Origin: Candidatus Micrarchaeota archaeon
Lineage (GTDB): Archaea > Micrarchaeota > Micrarchaeia > Micrarchaeales > CABMGC01
Reading direction: 5' to 3'
DNA: 33,404 nt
Assembly (NCBI GenBank): GCA_030040335.1
Contig: JASHTX010000059.1
Coordinates: 1-33,404 of the forward strand
The position numbers were made by a program, and so were the translations under genes. This document shows positions 3,288-29,471 of the stretch, piece by piece. Within the stretch, counting starts at the first letter, position 1. Each line of letters opens with the position of its first letter. The notes under the pieces are model-generated. The model saw nothing but the letters and a program-made list of their open reading frames with translations. It ran no database searches and was not told where the DNA came from.

Positions 3288-3836
3288 CTAGGTCCCGTTG
3301 TCATTTACCCAGATGAAAGCGGCTGTCTTCCTGCCGTTGGTCACGCCCCTGGGCCTTGCCACCTTCCTGAAGCCCATCTTGAGGTGGAAGAGCTCTGTGG
3401 CCCTGTTATACGGAGAGGCCCAGCTTCCGGCTACTACCTTCATACCCTTGGCCTTCTTGAAAATAGTCTCGTACAGTTTTTTACCTATGGACCTGCCCTG
3501 CGAGCTGCGCAATACGCCGACCTGGTCAATGAAGATGGACTCAGGCTTGGAGTAGTGGTTCAGCACATACGCCTGCAGATAATTGTGCGGCTTTGTGTAG
3601 CTGGTGGGATAACCCATAACGAACCCGACTACTTTTCCTTTCTCAACCGCCACAAGAAAATATCCGGAATACTTGATTGCCTCCAGATATGATTCTGCAC
3701 GCACGTCTCCCCTCAAAAAACCCCTCGAGGTGTGCTCATTCGTTATCTCTCCGACTACCTTCAACGACTTTCCGACGTTAGAGATCGTTCTGGCATCGGA
3801 TGGTTTGGCTCTCCGGATCGTTATGCGTGCTTTCAT
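3288..3836 (-). CDS. GNAT family N-acetyltransferase
   Basis: N-terminal IRRAKPSD; acetyl-CoA motif A IDQVGVLRSSQGRSIGKKLY; motif B NRATELFHLKMGF; start overlaps the upstream Lrp-like stop (ATGA). Confidence 0.88.
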   Translation of the reverse strand: MKARITIRRAKPSDARTISNVGKSLKVVGEITNEHTSRGFLRGDVRAESYLEAIKYSGYFLVAVEKGKVVGFVMGYPTSYTKPHNYLQAYVLNHYSKPESIFIDQVGVLRSSQGRSIGKKLYETIFKKAKGMKVVAGSWASPYNRATELFHLKMGFRKVARPRGVTNGRKTAAFIWVNDNGT

Positions 3837-4879
3837 TCAATGCCTTCGAGGATCGACTGCCAGTTGATTACCCTGTAAACCTTGCTGGTATCAAGGCTCC
3901 TGAGCGGGAGGTCTCCGATCAGCACCTTGTCGATCACGCCGCGCTCGCTCTTAGGCTTTTCAGCGACCATGTCCTCCTTGTAGTAGTTCCAGAACCTCTT
4001 CATCGCGGTCTCCAGGTCGTCGAAGACGCCTACCCCGAAGAAATCTCCGCTACCTACAAGCTGGTTCACGATCACGTATCTGCTTACCAGAGAATATTCG
4101 TCATCTGTCCTGAAGAAATCCCTCGTCGACCTCGCGTCCTGCTCGAACCTGCTCGAGATTATGTACTTGCCAAAGATCGTCATGACCGTGAACGGATCCA
4201 GCTTCTCCATCACGAGCGTGAACCTCTTTATGTAGCCGAGCTCGACGAGCTTCTTGAAGTTGTAGGCTATGGTGTTGAAGTGCATGCCGGTCTCCTTGGA
4301 AAGCTGCTGGAACGTGGCGCGCGAGTTCTTGTTGAGCAGCAAGAGCAGCGTCTTGTACTTCTCGGGCAGGTCGAGGCGCTCCAGGAGCTCGTTCCGCAAG
4401 GGATAGAAGCCGAGAGGCCTCCAGGCGACCTCTGACGGGTTCCACGAAACCCCGTAGTCTGCGAGGTGAATCTGCAGCCCGCGGTCCCAGTGGACATAGT
4501 CGTCCCTAGACTGCGCGTTTGCGTATATGAACATGTCGTACGAGCCCTTGATCGTCGCAACTATCTGCGGTATGTGAAAGCGCGAGAAGACCTGCTTGAG
4601 GTAATCGTCGCTCGGCCTCTTGTTGAACTTGATGATTATTATGTGCGGGTTGAACAGGCCGAGCTTGTCCTCGTCCAGCTCCAGCGTGTACCTTATGCCA
4701 AGCTCCTTCTCAAGCCTGGCAAGCCTGTCCTTGGCCGTCTTCCTGGAGAGACCGACGCTCTTCGCCAGCTCTGACATCGTTATCCTGGAGTTTTCGGAGA
4801 GCAGGCGGAGCATCTTCCTGGAAAGAAGGTTGTACTTGTCGTTGAACTGGCTCTTGAACTCACGACCAGGCTTTGGCAT
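3833..4879 (-). CDS. Double-length Lrp/AsnC-family transcriptional regulator (two wHTH+RAM-like units), paralog 1
   Basis: Two AsnC-type HTH segments: LRLLSENSRITMSELAKSVGLSRKTAKDRLARLEKELGI and LLLLNKNSRATFQQLSKETGMHFNTIAYNFKKLVELGYIKRFT; RAM-like GSYD motif. Confidence 0.88.
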   Translation of the reverse strand: MPKPGREFKSQFNDKYNLLSRKMLRLLSENSRITMSELAKSVGLSRKTAKDRLARLEKELGIRYTLELDEDKLGLFNPHIIIIKFNKRPSDDYLKQVFSRFHIPQIVATIKGSYDMFIYANAQSRDDYVHWDRGLQIHLADYGVSWNPSEVAWRPLGFYPLRNELLERLDLPEKYKTLLLLLNKNSRATFQQLSKETGMHFNTIAYNFKKLVELGYIKRFTLVMEKLDPFTVMTIFGKYIISSRFEQDARSTRDFFRTDDEYSLVSRYVIVNQLVGSGDFFGVGVFDDLETAMKRFWNYYKEDMVAEKPKSERGVIDKVLIGDLPLRSLDTSKVYRVINWQSILEGIE

Positions 4880-4994
4880 GCTTATGCTTCGCAGCGCAGA
4901 TTTTTTAACCTATTACAAAGTAACAAAAACTTCAGTAAAAGTGGTATTTTTCGGTTAGTATATAAGCAGCCTTTCCCAAGTGTAAGCGAGAAGG

Positions 4995-6230
4995 ATGAAG
5001 ATTCTGACGCGCGGTTACCTGTACATGGTGCTTTCCCTGATTCTGGGGGCGCTCTTCCCTGTAGTGCTAGTCTTTGCCAAAGGCGTCGACATCTTCGAGT
5101 TCTTCATGTTGAGCTATCTCCTGGCAATACCGTTCGCCTTGCTGCTGGTAATAGCCTCGAAGAGGTGGAAGACATTCACTGCCTACGTGACTGACCCTAA
5201 GAGGCTCGGAATAATAACGCTCATAGGCCTGCTCACATACGCGTCGGTGGGCATAGGACTCTTCTACGCAGAGCAGTTCGTGAGTGCGTCGCTGGCCACT
5301 GTGGTCTTCAGGACATCGCCGCTGCTCATGCTGCTGCTCCTGCCCACAGTGCTGAACGAGAGGCTGACCAAAAGCCAGATTGCAGCGCTGTGTCTAGCGT
5401 TTGCGGGCATATACATAGCGCTGAGCGGAGGGCAACTTTTCGGCATATTCGGCAACGCGAACATATCGATCGTGCTCTTCCTGGTTGCAGCGGCTTTTGC
5501 CTATGCGCTCGGAGCCGTGCTGATAAGAAAATACGTCTTCAACCTGGAGAGTGCGATGCTGATATTCAACATGGCCCTCTTCGTGATCTTTGCAGCGCTC
5601 TACGTTGCGACAGGCGTGAACTCGAGCCAGCTGCAGCTTTCTCAGCTCGGGGCGATATTCTATGTAGGCATCTTCACGAACATCTGCAGCTTCTACATGT
5701 ACTTCAATTCGCTCAGGATACTCAAGATGACAGTTGCCACTAACTTCCTCTTCCTCTCCCCGTTCCTCACGCTGCTCTTCGCAAGCGTGCTGCTGGGCGA
5801 GGTAATACAACCGTACTACGTGGTCATAGCGCTGCTGGTCGGGGCCGGCCTCATCATCCAGAGGTATGACAGGGTAGGAGGCAGCTACCGCACAAGGGAT
5901 TCCAAGAGACTCAGGAACTTCGCAATATTCGACGTCACCGGGGCTTTCGTCAACACCGGTGAGCTTGCAATCCAACATGCAATCCAGAAGGGCGGCAGGG
6001 TCCTGGCGCTCAAGCTCGATGCCGGGCAGAAGCAGAAGGTAAACTCGCTGATATCAGACGGTGGACACTCAGGCGTTTTTACAGATGAGCATCCGCGAAT
6101 AACCGAAGAATCCACTTTCGTCAAGGAGATAGTGGGGGCCAAAGAGAATGAGTTCGTGGTAATGAAAGCAGGAGATACTGAGGAAGGAGAGCGCTTCTTC
6201 GAGACGCTTTCAGATGCAATGGGAGTGTAA
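4995..6230 (+). CDS. EamA/DMT-family transporter with a soluble C-terminal domain resembling the GAD (GatE/AspRS insertion) domain
   Basis: About 10 hydrophobic helices with EamA motifs (SASLATVVFRTSPL..LNERLT; FLSPFLTLLFASVLLGE), then a ~100-aa tail FDVTGAFVNTGELAIQHAIQKGGRVLALKL...GVFTDEHPRITEE. Confidence 0.85.
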   Translation: MKILTRGYLYMVLSLILGALFPVVLVFAKGVDIFEFFMLSYLLAIPFALLLVIASKRWKTFTAYVTDPKRLGIITLIGLLTYASVGIGLFYAEQFVSASLATVVFRTSPLLMLLLLPTVLNERLTKSQIAALCLAFAGIYIALSGGQLFGIFGNANISIVLFLVAAAFAYALGAVLIRKYVFNLESAMLIFNMALFVIFAALYVATGVNSSQLQLSQLGAIFYVGIFTNICSFYMYFNSLRILKMTVATNFLFLSPFLTLLFASVLLGEVIQPYYVVIALLVGAGLIIQRYDRVGGSYRTRDSKRLRNFAIFDVTGAFVNTGELAIQHAIQKGGRVLALKLDAGQKQKVNSLISDGGHSGVFTDEHPRITEESTFVKEIVGAKENEFVVMKAGDTEEGERFFETLSDAMGV

Positions 6231-6294
6231 GCGGTAATAGGCCACTTCTCATATTAACAGCAATATCTGTTTAAAATGGAAAAATCGGAGGGTA

Positions 6295-6301
6295 TTTATA
6301 T
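6295..6301 (+). promoter_or_regulatory. TATA box candidate (TTTATAT) upstream of an orphan structured element
   Basis: Archaeal TATA consensus about 25 nt before the hairpin at 6324; no convincing + strand gene follows. Confidence 0.5.
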
Positions 6302-6321
6302 TTGCTAAGCGTAATAGTATT

Positions 6322-6409
6322 GCGGGTTTTGAGTTATCAAATCTTTTTGATACGCTAAAACCCCACCACCCGGAATGGGGTGCGTCGCAAGATGCGCCCT
6401 CTTCTTTTT
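6322..6409 (+). ncRNA. Candidate ~90-nt structured small RNA (long hairpin + ACCA + GCAA-capped hairpin + U tract)
   Basis: GGGTTTT(6324-30)/AAAACCC(6357-63) encloses TATCAAA-TCTT-TTTGATA; GGGGTGCGTC-GCAA-GATGCGCCCT (6377-6400) has three G.U pairs only on the + strand; followed by CTTCTTTTT. Confidence 0.5.
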
Positions 6410-6447
6410 AATTGCTTATTTTGAGAGACAGGGTATGGCAAGCAGTC

Positions 6448-6927
6448 CTAGAGCTCTTTCTCGCACCAGTACCGCATCTCTCCTTCTCCGTAGTAGTTGA
6501 AGACCTCCTTGGCGATCCTGTAACCCTGCTTCCTGAAAAACGCAATGCCGGTCTTGTTCGTCTTGTTTGTTGCCAGGCCGATCTTCTTCCTGCCGAGGTT
6601 TATCGCCTTCTCCTCAGCGAAGCGCATCATCTCGCTCCCTATTCCCCTGCGCCAGTGCGGTGGGTGGACGCATATTCTGAGCACCTCAAACTCGTCGGTC
6701 TCGGGCTTGTCGACCAGAGAGATGTAGGAGATGTAGTTGCCTGCCTTGTCCTTCCAGAGCCAGGTCTCCGAATCGTGCTCCACAGTCAGGTGGGTGAGCA
6801 GATCTTCCTTCGTCTCCAGGTGAAGGAGAGGGTGGTGGGCCTTCGAGACCTCTGCGTCGAAAGCGTGCAGCGAATCCAGGTTTTCCTTCACATCGAGCTT
6901 GCTTACATTGAGTCCGTCTTCGCTCAT
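6448..6927 (-). CDS. GNAT family N-acetyltransferase (RimI-like)
   Basis: VLRICVHPPHWRRGIGSEMM, LATNKTNKTGIAFFRKQGY, NYYGEGE. Confidence 0.9.
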   Translation of the reverse strand: MSEDGLNVSKLDVKENLDSLHAFDAEVSKAHHPLLHLETKEDLLTHLTVEHDSETWLWKDKAGNYISYISLVDKPETDEFEVLRICVHPPHWRRGIGSEMMRFAEEKAINLGRKKIGLATNKTNKTGIAFFRKQGYRIAKEVFNYYGEGEMRYWCEKEL

Positions 6928-7067
6928 GCAAGCACCCAGCCGTAAAGAGTAGACGGCGCGGCTTGCGCTGCGCCGTTTTTTGGAGCGGGCGCGGAATTTT
7001 TAGCTTTAAGGGTGGGTGACATTAAAGCTGAGGAGTCATAAAAGATTACGCTCCGTATCCGGCCCAT
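6928..7067 (-). promoter_or_regulatory. Structured ~140-nt 5' leader of the GNAT gene, also containing a 47-aa leader ORF (7067..6924)
   Basis: TATA TTTATATA at 7094-7087; several stems incl. AGCTTTAA/TTAAAGCT with loop CACCCACCC and ACGGCGC..GCAA..GCGCCGT; leader ORF stop overlaps the GNAT ATG (ATGA). Confidence 0.5.
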
Positions 7068-7200
7068 GTATGGTTATAAACTTGTATATATAAATGCGGA
7101 CCGAATTTGGGTAAAAAAGAGACACTTTGAGGATAATTTGTCGTTTTCGCAATCTACTTCACTCTAGGAACTCCGTAGATATAATAAAAATACTGAATTA

Positions 7201-7323
7201 TGGAGCTAGACAGGTTGACAATCTGTAACCTGTCCTCTATGCATGTGTGCTATAACAGGGCAATCAGCTTGTTTTTTGTGGAAAACGCAACTTCTAAAGG
7301 CTTTGCGTGCAATAGATATGCAT
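7201..7323 (+). promoter_or_regulatory. Structured 5' leader / inverted repeat upstream of Lrp paralog 2
   Basis: GACAGGTT(7209-16)/AACCTGTC(7227-34) perfect IR around ACAATCTGT; ATGCATGT(7239-46) can pair with ATATGCAT(7316-23), covering the start codon; AT-rich TATA-like ATATAATAAAAA at 7179-7190. Confidence 0.45.
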
Positions 7324-8374
7324 GGAAGAGGAGTCGCTGGAGTTCTCGAGCAGGTTCAATGAGAAGTACAGCCTGGTATCAAGGAAAATGATACGCATGC
7401 TGTCAGAGAACTCGAGGCTGACCAGCACTGAGATTGCCGGCAGGCTTGGGATATCAAGGCAGGCGGTCGCGAAGAGGCTCAGCAGGTTGGAGAAGGAATT
7501 TGGGATCAGGTACGTGCCTGAGTTCAACGAGGACAAGCTTGGCATATCGAACCCTCACATCGTAATGGTGAAGTTCAGGGAGAAACCAAGCCAATCGTAT
7601 CTTGCAGACATCTTCTCCCGCTCTTACATAACTCAGGTCGTGGTGTCTGTGAAGGGTACCTACGACCTCCTCATATACGCAAACTCGCTTTCGAGGGACG
7701 CGTACATACACTGGGACAAGGGAATGCAGATACTGCTCGCAGACTACGAGCCCTCATGGCGCTCTTCTGACATAGGGCATGCGCAGCTCGGCTTCTATCC
7801 TTTGCGGAACGATCTCCTAGGCAGGGTCTCCATTCCAGAGGAGTACAAGACGATACTGAAGGCCCTGAACACCGATGCACGCGCATCATTCGAGTCGATC
7901 TCCAAGCAGTCTGGCATGCGCGTAAACAGGGTTGTCTACAACTTCAAGAAGCTGCTGAAGCTCGGTTACATAAAGCGCTTCACGCTTGCGATGACAAAAC
8001 TGGAGAATGCGGTGATAATGACGCACTTCGCCAAGTATAATATCTCTAGGACTTTCGAGAATGATGCAAAGGGGACCAGACCGGTCTACAGGGCCGACGA
8101 CCAGTACCCCTTGGTCAGTAGATACATAATAACAAATCAGCTCGTGGGCAGCTACGACTTCTTCAGCGCAGGAGTCTTCGACAGCCCGGAGGTAGCGTAC
8201 AAGAGGAACATCGCCTGGTTCAGGCACCAGCTGAAACCCGAGCGGCCGAAGCTGGTATACGGAATAGTGGACAAGGTCATCGTAGGCAATCTGCCTGTGA
8301 GGAGCGTAGACACATACAAGGAATACGATGCGATAGTGTGGTCGCCTGATTTTAGGAAGGAGGAACATCTCTGA
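7322..8374 (+). CDS. Double-length Lrp/AsnC-family transcriptional regulator, paralog 2
   Basis: Colinear with 3833..4879 (FNEKYSLVSRKMIRMLSENSR, KGTYDLLIYAN, LGFYPLRN, LGYIKRFTL, NQLVGS); two HTH units. Confidence 0.88.
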   Translation: MEEESLEFSSRFNEKYSLVSRKMIRMLSENSRLTSTEIAGRLGISRQAVAKRLSRLEKEFGIRYVPEFNEDKLGISNPHIVMVKFREKPSQSYLADIFSRSYITQVVVSVKGTYDLLIYANSLSRDAYIHWDKGMQILLADYEPSWRSSDIGHAQLGFYPLRNDLLGRVSIPEEYKTILKALNTDARASFESISKQSGMRVNRVVYNFKKLLKLGYIKRFTLAMTKLENAVIMTHFAKYNISRTFENDAKGTRPVYRADDQYPLVSRYIITNQLVGSYDFFSAGVFDSPEVAYKRNIAWFRHQLKPERPKLVYGIVDKVIVGNLPVRSVDTYKEYDAIVWSPDFRKEEHL

Positions 8375-9929
8375 GTTCGACCGAATCATTTCCTATCACT
8401 ATGACCTTCGCATATTTTTCACCTCTCCTGCGCAGCATTCTTTCCGTGTCTTCAGGCCTTTTCAGCCCTGTCTCGTACTCTATCGCGATCTTCTCGCCGT
8501 CCTTGTAGGCAATCACGTCGGGTCCGTAGGCATTATTGTAAACCATGTTTCTGATGCCGTTCTCGGTGAGATACTTGCTTATCAGGCTGACCATGATGTC
8601 GTGCTCTGCGCTGTTCCTCGGCATTGCGATATACCATGCACCTTCAAAGGGTGGCTCGGACACAACATGGTATCCGATTATTCCGGTTTTTATCAACTCG
8701 ATCAGCGACCTCGTCACTTCTTCCTGTTCGAATCCCTCGTTTCTGAGTCTCTCTTCGAGCTCGCGTTTGCTCACTATCCCCTTTGCCAGATCAACTATCC
8801 GGTGGACAGGGTCCCTGATTGCTGGCCTAAATCGCAGGCACCTAACTATTTTAGGACTCCTGTCATATGCCAGCTGCACCAGCGCGCAGCCGCGCTGGAG
8901 CTCCCTCAGCGCCTTCCTCACTTCGATGAACCTGTTGTACTCAGTGCCGGCTGCAATTATGTTGGCGATGTAGTTCTGCTCTTCAGGTTCCCTCTGCGTG
9001 AATGCGATCAGCGTAGCTGCGTTGCTCCTTATTTCCTTGTCCAGCGCCTTTGCCCGCTGCGCTATGGCGATCATGCCTAGGCCATACTTCCTGCCCTCTG
9101 CAACCAACCTTGCCACGACCGGGCTGTCCTGGAGTTTTTCCGCCTCGTCTATGACAATATAGAACCTCCTTTTGCTTCCTGATGCGCTGCCCTGCAGGAG
9201 GTTTGCATATATCTTCCTTAGTATACTCTCCATATAGAGCGCCTGTGCTTCTGAGCTATGCAGACTTGCGAGCGAGAAGACAGACCTGGAGTTCAGCAGG
9301 CTGCCAACGCTGACGCTCCTCTGGAACTGCTCTCCGGCTACTGCGAGCAGGCGCTTCTCAAGCGCGTCGAGCACGTTCTGCTCCGGCTTTGATCTTGACC
9401 TGCGCTTGAAGACCTTTATCGTGTAAAGCAGGCTGTGCATATTCGGCGTGCGCTCCTTGACAGCGCTTATCCAGTACGTGTATGCGATGCACCTGTAGAG
9501 CGTGCCAGCCTGCACCTCTCCGAGATGGAGCACACGCTTGAACATGCCGGTTATCTCTGATGTGCGTTCCCTCTCTGTTAGGCCGTCAAGGTCAAAGATA
9601 TTCACAGCGTGTATACTCGCGTCGTAGATCACGGCATGAATATCTTTCGCACCCTCCACATACTCTGCGTGCGGGTCCAGTACAAGAAAGTTTGCTCCGT
9701 GCCCTGCTAGCTGCCTGAGGATCAGCTTGCATGCGTTGCTCTTGCCGGCCCCACTCTCACCGGTTATCATCACGTGCCGGTTCGTACTTTTGTCCAGGTT
9801 AAGCCTCATGGATTTGAAGTACCTTCTTTGCCATTGCCATCTCAAAAGACCAAAGCGCCTCACTAGGCGCAACTCGCGATGGACTTTGCCGAGAGTTATA
9901 GAGTTTCTGTTTTTGAAAAAAGTAAACAT
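8352..9929 (-). CDS. HerA/FtsK-VirB4-like ATPase (DUF87-type) with C-terminal PD-(D/E)xK-like domain
   Basis: RHVMITGESGAGKS (Walker A), VLDPHAEY, IVIDEAE (Walker B), EGRKYGLGMIAIAQR; C-terminal EHD...GPDVIAYKDGEKIAIEYETG; start placed at ATG 9929 to avoid overlap with the divergent gene. Confidence 0.85.
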   Translation of the reverse strand: MFTFFKNRNSITLGKVHRELRLVRRFGLLRWQWQRRYFKSMRLNLDKSTNRHVMITGESGAGKSNACKLILRQLAGHGANFLVLDPHAEYVEGAKDIHAVIYDASIHAVNIFDLDGLTERERTSEITGMFKRVLHLGEVQAGTLYRCIAYTYWISAVKERTPNMHSLLYTIKVFKRRSRSKPEQNVLDALEKRLLAVAGEQFQRSVSVGSLLNSRSVFSLASLHSSEAQALYMESILRKIYANLLQGSASGSKRRFYIVIDEAEKLQDSPVVARLVAEGRKYGLGMIAIAQRAKALDKEIRSNAATLIAFTQREPEEQNYIANIIAAGTEYNRFIEVRKALRELQRGCALVQLAYDRSPKIVRCLRFRPAIRDPVHRIVDLAKGIVSKRELEERLRNEGFEQEEVTRSLIELIKTGIIGYHVVSEPPFEGAWYIAMPRNSAEHDIMVSLISKYLTENGIRNMVYNNAYGPDVIAYKDGEKIAIEYETGLKRPEDTERMLRRRGEKYAKVIVIGNDSVELRDVPPS

Positions 9930-10022
9930 AATTTCACCAATGCTGCCCGACTTTAGAGGGTGAACATCGCAGCGGGCAGGAATAAAGCCAACCCTTTTAT
10001 ATCGGGAAAAGACAATGCCAGC

Positions 10023-10733
10023 ATGGAAAAGGGCAGGTCGCAAGAGGGCAGGACGTCTGAATTCATGGGTGTGAAGTACCTGCGGCGCCAGCACGAGCTG
10101 GAGCTCATAGGCACCAACATCTACACCTCTGGAGCTGCACATTCTGGCATCGGAAACATTCACGAATTACTTGACAGCGAGTGGATAAAGGATACGGGAG
10201 GCAGGAGCGGCAAGAAAGCAACGTCAGAGTACCAGTACCTCTGTTTCCCGCCCAGCCATCAACTCAGGACAGGGCTTGTCAGCGAGGAGGTGCTTGATGA
10301 CATAAAGAGCAATGGGAAAACGGTGCTGAGCGTGGGCGCTGGCTACGCCTTCACCGAACGAGTGTTGGTCAAGAAGCTTGGAGTGAATGCGGAGCAGATA
10401 ACGCTGGCAGACCGCGCGAACGTTATGCCGAAGGGTTTCAAGACCCTTCTCTTCGACATGGAAGAGGAATGGAAGCTCGGAGGCAAGAAGTATGACTACA
10501 TACTCTTCGCCCAATCCATAATACTGCCGAACGAGAGGTCGAAAAGGATGGGCAGGATACTAGAGAAGGCATACGCTGCGCTGAACGATGAAGGGCAGAT
10601 CAGAATCACCGGCACGTTCAGCCCAGAAGAAATAACAAACCTCAGAATATGGCTCGGAAAGAGGCATCCTGAAGCCGAGCTTGCAACAGACGACGAATTG
10701 TACCTCATTGTGATAAGGAAGGGCATACGGTGA
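10023..10733 (+). CDS. Class I SAM-dependent methyltransferase
   Basis: Motif I VLSVGAGYA, ITLAD, YDYILF, AYAALNDEGQIRI; TATA TTTTATAT at ~9995 supports ATG 10023. Confidence 0.75.
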   Translation: MEKGRSQEGRTSEFMGVKYLRRQHELELIGTNIYTSGAAHSGIGNIHELLDSEWIKDTGGRSGKKATSEYQYLCFPPSHQLRTGLVSEEVLDDIKSNGKTVLSVGAGYAFTERVLVKKLGVNAEQITLADRANVMPKGFKTLLFDMEEEWKLGGKKYDYILFAQSIILPNERSKRMGRILEKAYAALNDEGQIRITGTFSPEEITNLRIWLGKRHPEAELATDDELYLIVIRKGIR

Positions 10734-14453: not shown

Positions 14454-15680
14454 TCAGGCTTTGAGCGCGACCTTCGAGCCGGTCTTGCTCATGGTAATCG
14501 CCTCTGCTGTATCGCGTATCACGTGGTTCCTCACCTGCGCCTCGTTAGATGCGCGCTTGAGCAGGCCGCTCTCGTACTCAGTTCCCTTGCCCGCAAGGTA
14601 GATGTAAGCGAAGGTCATCGCACGCGTAGATGGCGGGTTCTTGCCCAGCAGTTCGCTGAGCGTGGCAAAATCGGTTTCAGAGGCCAGTTTCATTGCCGGA
14701 CCTCTCAGTTCCTCTGGCAGGCTGCCGAGCTGCACCTTGCCTATTTCATCGATGACCTCTTTCTTGTCCCGCCCTGTCTTTAGCCCTTCTGCTACATCTC
14801 TTCCCATAGCCTGGCTTTGCTCTCGTGCATCAGGCTGAACTGGAGAACTATCATCTCGCAAATGCGGAGGTTCTGGAGGCTTGGGTTCCCTGGAATCGGG
14901 GATATCTGGTTGAATAGGAGGCAGCGGTTGCCCCGCTTCAGAGTATGCGGGAACAGTCTGCGCATGCTTGCTGGCTGCCCTGTGGGATCTGTTATTGACC
15001 GTAGTGGTATGCAGGCCGAGCCCATCCAGCTCGATTTTCAGTATGCGGAAAGCGGATTCGATGGTTCCTGTAGAAAAGCCGGAGGCAGATGCGAAATTTA
15101 CCATCGTCTTGCCCTCCTGTTCCATGAGAGAAGCGGCGTACATGCAAACGGCCGTGACCTTGACCGGACTAGTATTAATTGCGAAAAATGCCTTCCTTCC
15201 CTCGGCCTTGTCGATGATCTCCATCGTCCGCTGCGCTGTCCTCTCCGACACGCCAGTTTGGAAACTTAGTCTCTTGACAAAGTCCTTGGGTCCCAGATCC
15301 TTCTCTGTAAGGCTTAACAGAGAATGCAGCTCATTGTAGTCGCTCCCGAGTTTGGCCCTGTTCTCGCCAAAATCCCCGGGAAACATTCCAGCAAACTCCG
15401 GGAGCGTTATGGGAATTCCGATCACCCTTATTGCGGAATAGACGGCAACATTGGCTGCTCGTTGGTACGACCGCGTAGACGCGAAGTTCCTATCAAGGCC
15501 TTCCATGTAGTGGCGCGCGGCCAGCGTTTTCACTTCTCGTGCATCGCCGAGCCCGTAAACCTCGAAGAGCGTATCCAGCGCCGCGAAAGGCTGAGTCAGG
15601 TATGGATGGTTTGAAGGTATTTCAGATATGCCTGCCGACGTCGCATTTTGTCGCATGGCTGAGTCTGAATCTCCTGACAT
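14454..15680 (-). CDS. TFB-like protein: cyclin-repeat core without Zn ribbon, Pro-rich linker, additional cyclin-like C-terminal region
   Basis: RSYQRAANVAVYSAIRVIGIPITLPEF, PKDFVKRLSFQTGVS, SPVKVTAVCMYAASLMEQEGKTMVNFASASGFSTGTIE align by eye to TFB repeats 1 and 2; no CxxC. Confidence 0.75.
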   Translation of the reverse strand: MSGDSDSAMRQNATSAGISEIPSNHPYLTQPFAALDTLFEVYGLGDAREVKTLAARHYMEGLDRNFASTRSYQRAANVAVYSAIRVIGIPITLPEFAGMFPGDFGENRAKLGSDYNELHSLLSLTEKDLGPKDFVKRLSFQTGVSERTAQRTMEIIDKAEGRKAFFAINTSPVKVTAVCMYAASLMEQEGKTMVNFASASGFSTGTIESAFRILKIELDGLGLHTTTVNNRSHRAASKHAQTVPAYSEAGQPLPPIQPDIPDSREPKPPEPPHLRDDSSPVQPDAREQSQAMGRDVAEGLKTGRDKKEVIDEIGKVQLGSLPEELRGPAMKLASETDFATLSELLGKNPPSTRAMTFAYIYLAGKGTEYESGLLKRASNEAQVRNHVIRDTAEAITMSKTGSKVALKA

Positions 15681-29396: not shown

Positions 29397-29471
29397 GGGC
29401 TCGTAGCTCAGCTTGGATAGAGCAACAGCCTTCTAAGCTGAAGGTCGCGGGTTCAAATCCCGCCGGGCCCG
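29397..29471 (+). tRNA. tRNA-Arg (anticodon TCT), no intron, CCA not encoded
   Basis: Acceptor GGGCTCG/CGGGCCC, D stem GCTC/GAGC, anticodon loop CTTCTAA, T arm GCGGG-TTCAAAT-CCCGC, discriminator G. Confidence 0.95.

Follow-up and report, generated by a model that had tools for sequence, protein, structure and literature searches.

A tandem Lrp-type regulator paired with a GAD-tailed EamA transporter in Micrarchaeota, and a candidate small RNA beside it

In the closest described systems, Lrp-BrnFE of Corynebacterium glutamicum and Lrp-LeuE of Escherichia coli, the gene for a dedicated Lrp-family regulator adjoins that of the amino-acid exporter under its control, and the regulator responds to the compounds that the exporter carries (PMC8140960, which cites Lange et al. 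2012). The locus described here occupies positions 3288 to 8374 of a 33,404-nucleotide (nt) stretch from Candidatus Micrarchaeota archaeon (contig JASHTX010000059.1 of GenBank assembly GCA_030040335.1), and this whole stretch is called the window below. It encodes a tandem Lrp/AsnC-type regulator, dLrp1, and divergently from it an EamA/DMT transporter ending in a GAD-like domain (EamA-GAD), together with a second regulator (dLrp2), two GNAT-type proteins (GNAT1 and GNAT2) and two intergenic gaps (gap 1 and gap 2). The genomes of Micrarchaeota and other DPANN archaea are very small, and many metabolites have to come from a host, so that small-molecule sensing and transport are central to the biology of these archaea.

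The likeness to Lrp-BrnFE and Lrp-LeuE is an analogy and consists in an Lrp-family regulator encoded beside a transporter. In contrast to those systems, the regulator here is one chain with two units of helix-turn-helix (HTH) and RAM-like domain, the transporter belongs to the DMT/EamA type with a GAD-like tail instead of LIV-E or RhtB, the reduced archaeal genome carries the cassette in multiplied form, with 1-5 copies per genome, and a candidate small RNA has the same promoter layout. With the Lrp/AsnC regulators PH1519/FL11, PH0140, LysM and E. coli Lrp, each modelled half of dLrp1 has in common a winged HTH followed by a beta-alpha-beta-beta-alpha-beta domain, whereas dLrp fuses two such units, with diverged halves, in a 348-amino-acid (aa) chain that gives no Pfam RAM match. 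The architecture of two Lrp-like units in one chain is also that of NirDL and AhbA-AhbB; NirDL, however, is an enzyme, while the dLrp genes have a palindrome in their promoters and a transporter gene as partner. The transporter has its two EamA repeats, its ten helices and the DMT fold in common with 5i20, LicB, SLC35B1 and nucleotide-sugar transporters, but none of these matched chains aligns to the C-terminal GAD-like domain. The latter resembles the GAD domain, an insertion domain of archaeal GatE and bacterial-type AspRS, in profile and fold, including the FDVT..F motif, and yet is here the tail of a membrane transporter, outside the tRNA enzymes.

An Lrp regulator beside a transporter is thus the known part, and the new part comprises two unusual domain architectures and a genus-level candidate small RNA: a single-chain Lrp pseudo-dimer that is predicted to act as a transcription factor and for which a candidate operator is defined, a transporter with a GAD domain, which lies here outside the tRNA enzymes and may give a handle on the role of that domain, and a lineage-specific candidate small RNA, apparently wired to the same promoter logic. 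A literature search limited to main texts returned nothing relevant on Micrarchaeota with EamA, on tandem Lrp or on Lrp/transporter combinations in DPANN archaea; genes of this kind might be listed in the gene tables of the Mia14 paper (PMC5498576).

The dLrp/EamA-GAD pair and its putative operator

The conserved unit of the locus consists of two genes, dLrp and a divergent EamA-GAD, and is widespread and multi-copy in this Micrarchaeota family. The orthologous loci compared were 20 regions of +/-7 kb round foreign dLrp matches, which were taken from the 21 top-ranked matches after the one in the unpublished genome G198 had been set aside. A full-length EamA-GAD gene stands head-to-head with dLrp in 18 of these 20 loci, with gaps of 84-146 nt, and each of the other gene families is common to at most five of them. 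The pair was also found at locus L054 and in genomes G223, G225, G203 and G276; a locus search of genome contigs with dLrp1 returned two loci only, the paired L054 among them. Elsewhere in the family, 71 of the 117 genomes searched carry EamA-GAD, with 1-5 copies each. For the 35 family genomes covered by both the dLrp and the EamA-GAD searches, cross-reading of the coordinates revealed an adjacent dLrp for 41 of 42 EamA-GAD genes (39 head-to-head, two tail-to-tail, with one pair from G198), and the sole unpaired gene is a fragment at a contig end. Pairing is kept even in paralogous cassettes only 25-35% identical to that of the window. The proposal of an initial annotation of this DNA that the double-Lrp gene and the GAD-tailed EamA gene belong together is borne out by these counts. 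The two tail-to-tail cassettes are L093 (G019:C41) and L094 (G079:C17).

In the assembly of ~0.9 Mb, tandem-Lrp genes number four and GAD-tailed transporters at least two; relatives have up to five transporter copies, nearly always with a tandem-Lrp gene beside them, which argues that the cassette is a principal means by which the lineage senses and transports nutrients.

The two regulators of the locus are 55% identical over 340 aa in an ungapped alignment. Both match the AsnC-type HTH of Pfam (E 1.6e-15 for dLrp1, 4.9e-14 for dLrp2), and HTH_24 matches two stretches of each, with the AsnC-type HTH at residues ~20-60 and a second HTH at ~175-220; gene calls, Pfam and sequence identity therefore agree with the earlier description of two ~350-aa paralogs that carry two HTH units each and point outward. 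The AlphaFold2 model of dLrp1, built with 35 homologues (pLDDT 93.1, pTM 0.91), shows the unit of HTH and beta-alpha-beta-beta-alpha-beta domain twice, and in a Foldseek search about 50 Lrp/AsnC/FFRP regulators, some of them ligand-bound, superpose on one half each with a root-mean-square deviation (rmsd) of 2.3-3.1 Å and TMt 0.72-0.80. All dLrp scores lie far under the cut-offs of the NCBIfam equivalogs, including AhbB (cut-off 125 bits), to which dLrp2 scores 17 bits (E 0.0037), dLrp1 gives no match and the best protein of the whole assembly scores 18.9 bits. The HTH scores, the half-wise superposition on Lrp proteins and the low AhbB scores lead us to read dLrp1 and dLrp2 as predicted single-chain tandem Lrp-type transcription factors. 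Their homologues form 91 clusters at 90% identity, nearly all of ~345 aa, and those with names come from Micrarchaeota or Micrarchaeia. Matches at E <= 1e-20 occur in 70 of 201 sampled genomes of the phylum, almost all of them in two families of one order and often in several copies.

In the dLrp tree, dLrp2, dLrp1 and the orthologue of genome G038 form one clade (support 100/98), in which the branch of dLrp2 is longer than that of dLrp1 (0.68 vs 0.41). A second neighbouring dLrp copy was seen in one of the 20 orthologous loci, as a fragment only. On this tree and distribution, dLrp2 is a recent, lineage-specific local duplicate of dLrp1. The regulators of L064, L065, L040 and L043, which occupy the same syntenic place in the same genus, scatter over poorly resolved parts of the tree, and this points to fast divergence or to an exchange of cassettes. 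Two more tandem-Lrp members of the assembly, 30% identical to dLrp1, are encoded on contigs C48 (8845-9825, - strand) and C21 (25358-25999, + strand), and the fetched flanks of both contain no EamA gene.

The transporter matches EamA (PF00892) in two stretches with E 1.9e-26 and 93.4 bits against a cut-off of 28.2 bits. In its AlphaFold2 model (pLDDT 84.8) the helices span residues 3-290 and have the DMT fold, with SLC35B1, LicB, 5i20 and nucleotide-sugar transporters as Foldseek matches; the scores against the TIGR00950 and YddG equivalogs are under the cut-offs. Every one of the 20 aligned transporter homologues retains the final ~120 residues, with the two motifs given in Table 1. Searched with a profile built from the C-terminal 123 aa, the insertion domain of archaeal GatE is matched (1zq1_C residues 285-396, E 2.9e-7; 2d6f_C, E 5.7e-6), and the modelled tail aligns in Foldseek with GatE 1zq1_C over 114 columns (rmsd 3.4, 26% identity) as well as with AspRS 4ah6 and 1eqr. 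The GAD-fused DMT protein of the initial annotation is upheld by this profile and structural similarity to the GatE/AspRS domain, though the tail scores 14.3 bits against Pfam GAD (PF02938), under the cut-off of 23.4 bits; of 20 family members, six match Pfam GAD at E <= 1, the best with E 0.0013.

Searched against 1.84 billion representatives, the tail profile gave 112 matches, nearly all at residues ~289-415 of proteins of 408-438 aa or in fragments of such proteins, and only at the bottom of the 112 were two ~600-aa proteins matched at GatE-like positions. This distribution indicates a distinct GAD subfamily that, to judge from the matches, exists essentially only as a fusion to an EamA transporter. 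The only canonical GAD of the assembly lies in a GatE-like frame on contig C17. A second EamA-GAD gene of the assembly, cut off at the contig end, was detected at C37:1-549 (+ strand; tail profile E 1.3e-20).

The region between the divergent genes has a recurrent layout. In 23 like-oriented dLrp/EamA intergenic regions, the TATA box of dLrp is followed by CAAAATAACAA, 14-16 nt, TTGTTATTTTG, 6-8 nt and the transporter box TTTAAAA. This inverted repeat (CAAAATAACAA-N14-16-TTGTTATTTTG), flanked by the two TATA boxes, is a putative operator. With up to 6 mismatches allowed over its 22 positions, the bipartite motif occurs in 17 of the 23 regions against a mean of 0.6 and a maximum of 4 in 200 shuffles, a count that is a description and not a probability, because the consensus was drawn from the very regions in which it was then counted and the loci share ancestry. 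When the whole assembly was searched with an nhmmer profile of the operator, the best match was 4914-4960 (E 0.0047), between dLrp1 and the transporter, and the second-best was 6247-6296 (E 0.12), inside gap 1. The TATA boxes and transcription starts named here are predicted assignments. Distant paralogous cassettes have different AT-rich motifs at the same place, as would be expected if regulator and operator diverge together. Among the L079-L091 cassettes, which are ~30% identical to that of the window, AT-rich words such as CATTTTGACAAAT and TCCGCAAAA..TGTAAATAAA recur in the divergent region and suggest subfamily-specific operators.

The structured element downstream of the transporter

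The initial annotation had placed TATA-preceded, hairpin-rich elements in both gaps; the one in gap 1 is covarying and conserved in the genus, and the one in gap 2 is unconserved. A DNA search with the region in the 117 family genomes recovered a 73%-identical stretch in G225, directly 3' of EamA-GAD, and the same element lies 3' of EamA-GAD in G223, G175 and G003. Invariant across the five genomes are a half-site, CA.A.TAACA, and a TATTTA box, and the RNA-like body starts ~24 nt further on. The covariance model R1 of this body matches seven of 13 genomes of the same genus, with one copy each, all just 3' of EamA-GAD; two of the seven, G224 and G230, were not used in building the model. Outside the genus, R1 has no match in the family except two weak, terminator-like ones in genus g9.

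In an alignment of seven RNA sequences, all of one genus and fitted to the model, 93% of cells are paired, against 40-56% with the partners slid, and eight of 29 pairs change on both sides, a score reached by none of 500 shuffles. Compared with shuffled sequences, gap 1 folds with z -2.56 on the + strand and z -0.82 on the - strand. Conservation of the gap-1 structure is supported by covariation and by its presence in seven of the 13 genomes, and from its sequence the element is read as a genus-specific small RNA gene of ~86 nt, driven by a copy of the transporter promoter.

Rfam gave no match in either gap, the sole passing match of the window being tRNA-Arg at 29397-29471; at E <= 1 over 6150-7400 only BjrC68 appeared (16.3 bits, cut-off 39). 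A metagenome pattern scan with the RNA core returned eight stretches, none of which matches R1, and so added no homologues. Complements of nine-mers of the C-rich motif number 45 in the assembly against ~62 expected, with neither enrichment nor a link to start codons. A 13-nt perfect complement of the C-rich strand occurs on contig C74 near 8176 (+ strand), where by estimate ~0.1 would be expected by chance. Shine-Dalgarno-like motifs are rare upstream of long open reading frames (ORFs) in the assembly, and the 3' end of the 16S rRNA is absent from it.

Reading of the cassette and competing explanations

The account that we regard as likely is that of a cassette in which a ligand-sensing dLrp controls its own gene, the transporter gene and the gap-1 RNA, with the GNATs and dLrp2 as local additions. 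dLrp would be a pseudo-dimer within a single chain, in which the two HTHs differ from each other and each is accompanied by a RAM-like sensor domain, and would bind the inverted repeat between the TATA boxes. In response to a ligand, most likely an amino acid or a related metabolite, it would set its own expression and that of the transporter. The second promoter copy would drive the ~86-nt RNA downstream of the transporter in this genus, and the RNA would then be co-regulated. As to stoichiometry, the spacing of the arms suggests, in the light of Lrp-DNA complexes in general, that each 11-bp arm would probably be occupied by one pseudo-dimer, two protomers in all.

A number of points weigh against this account. 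The RAM domain (PF01037) is absent from the Pfam matches of dLrp at E <= 0.01, and ligand sensing thus rests on the fold; moreover, the full-length structure most similar to dLrp1 is that of an enzyme. With ~26-27 bp between their centres, the half-sites are spaced too widely for a single Lrp-like pseudo-dimer, the stoichiometry is a guess, and the operator count is, as said, descriptive. The converse of the pairing fails, as dLrp genes without a transporter occur at L052 and L053, on contigs C48 and C21 of the same assembly, and as dLrp2. As regards the RNA, the alignment was fitted to the model and covers one genus, and G038, a genome of that genus on one contig and 93% complete, has the cassette and no RNA match, from which it follows that the cassette can do without the RNA. 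Hairpin 2, which has an A-run and a U-run at its sides, could be a mere terminator between convergent genes. Transcription of the RNA and all of the regulation are inferred from sequence.

The enzyme in question is NirDL (4ch7, 4czc), the top full-length Foldseek match of the dLrp1 model (E 5.9e-11, TMq 0.56), and it is conceivable from this match and from the weak AhbB score of dLrp2 that the dLrp proteins are siroheme decarboxylases of the NirDL/AhbAB type and not transcription factors. The chance of this is very small. Identity to NirDL is 11-12% with an rmsd of 10.7-11.4 Å, the AhbB scores stay far under the cut-off, for the proteins of the window as well as across the assembly, both HTHs match DNA-binding HTH families strongly, the dLrp genes have the conserved inverted repeat in their own promoters, and the family occurs at 1-8 copies per genome, tied to transporters. 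A more serious competitor, which we nevertheless hold to be unlikely, concerns gap 1 and takes the element for a 3' untranslated region with a bidirectional terminator serving the transporter and the convergent gene, the upstream 'promoter' being a decayed duplicate. It is favoured by the place of hairpin 2 between an A-run and a U-run with convergent genes on either side in G225, G223, G175 and G003, by the hairpin and T-run scan that flags 6377-6400, by the weak R1 matches of genus g9, which are terminator-like hairpins only, and by G038, where the element is missing. On the other hand, the most conserved parts are hairpin 1 and the C-rich strand, which covary and exceed the needs of a terminator, and the invariant half-site and TATTTA box are placed such that a start ~24 nt downstream, as is the rule for archaeal promoters, falls on the first base of hairpin 1 both in the window and in G225.

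The initial annotation had gone further and joined all five genes and both gaps in one system for amino-acid or aminoacyl-tRNA sensing, DMT export, detoxification by the GNATs and RNA-level control, which appears quite improbable. In its favour, GNAT1 and dLrp1 are coupled in translation, the stop codon of dLrp1 overlapping the start of GNAT1 in ...GAATGAAA..., the ATGA that the annotation had pointed out. The sole GNAT1 homologue among 5.8 billion proteins, P0205 (62% identical), and the 77%-identical dLrp1 homologue P0002 are both listed with a longest contig of 5734 nt. Four foreign GNAT2 homologues are known from three of the 117 family genomes; three of the four lie within 2 kb of an EamA-GAD gene, that of G276 ~90 nt after the transporter on the same strand. 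Against this, GNAT1 has no homologue in the 117 family genomes or at the 20 orthologous loci, and GNAT2, with three genomes compared with 71 for EamA-GAD, has none at the 20 orthologous dLrp loci and changes its position and orientation every time. By distribution, GNAT1 is a strain-level addition, operon-coupled to dLrp1, and GNAT2 a sporadic accessory of the cassette and not a fixed part of it; dLrp2 is a recent duplicate and gap 2 unconserved.

Both proteins are acetyltransferases by Acetyltransf_1 (cut-off 20.7 bits; GNAT1 42.9 bits, E 7e-11; GNAT2 62.2 bits, E 7e-17), with the fold alone in common, since BLAST finds them unrelated (E 13). Their PDB neighbours are weak. As both score under every equivalog cut-off (GNAT2 45 bits against 86.4 for RimI, GNAT1 30 bits against 210 for ArsN1b), no substrate can be named for either. 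The neighbourhood comparison across relatives that the annotation had named as a check is therefore mixed in outcome: the dLrp/EamA-GAD pair alone is tightly kept, GNAT2 has the standing of an occasional accessory, and GNAT1, dLrp2 and gap 2 drop out as conserved parts. Sensing of amino acids or aminoacyl-tRNA, export (and with it a direction of transport), detoxifying acetylation and RNA-level control would follow here from analogy at the level of protein families.

The GAD-like tail permits a further, highly speculative thought within the cassette account, to which a slim chance is given, namely that it serves the transporter as a handle for an RNA or for the regulator paired with it. The GAD domain of GatE and AspRS adjoins the acceptor end of the tRNA. 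The tail could read charged or uncharged tRNA, or else the co-regulated ~86-nt RNA, in which hairpin 1 would form a closed stem and the C-rich single strand behind it, with a CCA in its sequence, a tail; transport would then be gated by the translational status, and the paired tandem Lrp would set expression from the same signal. If true, this would be the first case of a GAD domain with a signalling, non-enzymatic role, and DPANN archaea would have a regulatory pair of transporter and RNA. The literature leaves the role of GAD open even in its home enzymes, one proposal being that it traps aminoacyl-tRNA or alters the stability of the transamidosome (PMC3367201, PMC9499178). A complex prediction of dLrp1 with the GAD-like domain ended with a score of 0.00 and no answer, which counts neither for nor against a contact.

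Gap 2, neighbouring genes and coordinates

The features of the locus are collected in Table 1. The two gaps, earlier described as unusually long, are indeed long but not extreme: among 731 ORF-based gaps of the assembly (a crude set with a median of 34 nt), ~11% are at least 217 nt and ~3% at least 394 nt long.

Table 1. Positions of genes, intergenic regions and sequence elements of the locus (window numbering)
Feature	Position	Strand	Description
GNAT1	3288-3836	-	182 aa; Acetyltransf_1
dLrp1	3833-4879	-	348 aa; tandem Lrp/AsnC-type regulator
dLrp1/EamA divergent control region	4900-4966	both	TATA boxes and half-sites
dLrp1 TATA	4900-4908	-	predicted assignment
Left half-site CAAAGTAACAA	4916-4926		operator layout
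Right half-site TGGTATTTTTCG	4942-4953		operator layout
EamA TATA TATATAAG	4959-4966	+	predicted assignment
EamA-GAD fusion	4995-6230	+	411 aa; EamA/DMT body and GAD-like tail
EamA/DMT body	4995-5858	+	10 transmembrane helices
C-terminal cytoplasmic GAD-like domain	5859-6230	+	motifs IFDVTGAF, GGRVLAxKL
Gap 1	6231-6447	intergenic	217 nt; predicted promoter and ~86-nt structured RNA
RNA promoter half-site CATATTAACAG	6250-6260	+	copy of EamA promoter layout
RNA promoter second half-site TGGAAAAATCGG	6277-6288	+	copy of EamA promoter layout
RNA promoter TATA TATTTATA	6293-6300	+	copy of EamA promoter layout
Structured RNA	6324-6409	+	~86 nt; alignment and RNAalifold
RNA hairpin 1	6324-6363	+	part of RNA
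RNA C-rich single strand	6361-6373	+	nearly invariant CCCACC(C)ACCC
RNA GC hairpin 2	6377-6400	+	also flagged by hairpin and T-run scan
RNA U-run	6401-6409	+	part of RNA
GNAT2	6448-6927	-	159 aa; Acetyltransf_1
Gap 2	6928-7321	intergenic	394 nt; not conserved
GC hairpin and T6	6954-6985	+	terminator scan flags 6954-6970
Operator-like CTATAACAG ... CTTGTTTTTTGTG	7250-7258 ... 7268-7281		by eye only; shorter spacer
Weak TATA TTCTAAAG before dLrp2	7292-7299	+	by eye
dLrp2	7322-8374	+	350 aa; dLrp1 duplicate without transporter partner of its own

Besides its hairpin and the operator-like words, gap 2 contains an AT-rich stretch. It folds better than its shuffles (z -2.62 and -2.89), mainly because of the GC hairpin and T6; a DNA search in the 117 family genomes found no conservation beyond the 27-nt GC hairpin, and the operator profile has no site in the gap at E <= 10. 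The structured RNA element once supposed here is consequently not upheld, its hairpin being only weakly like the 3' half of the gap-1 RNA. A second copy of that RNA in gap 2 was considered and rejected, R1 with filters off giving only 13.4 and 8.6 bits at the GC hairpin. The stretch 6894-6985 (+ strand), made up of CACCCAGCC, the GC hairpin and T6, is similar to the 3' half of the gap-1 RNA and lies in part antisense to the start of GNAT2; either the insertion of GNAT2 may have left this trace, or the stretch may serve as a terminator for read-through antisense transcription.

The locus belongs to an archaeal chromosome, as the window also codes for PolD DP1/DP2, SecY, a TFIIB-like protein, PRPP synthase and PPDK; the source assembly has 0.9 Mb in 103 contigs and is 84% complete. 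On the - strand at 8352-10163 lies a gene for a 603-aa HerA/DUF87-type P-loop ATPase, the 3' end of which convergently overlaps that of dLrp2 by 23 nt. Its matches to CedD, CedB, HerA and VirB4-like proteins are weak and far under the cut-offs, and its last ~150 residues match no family. Further on, at 14454-15680 (- strand), a 408-aa ORF has a single weak TFIIB-repeat match (E 5e-8) and is long for an archaeal TFB.

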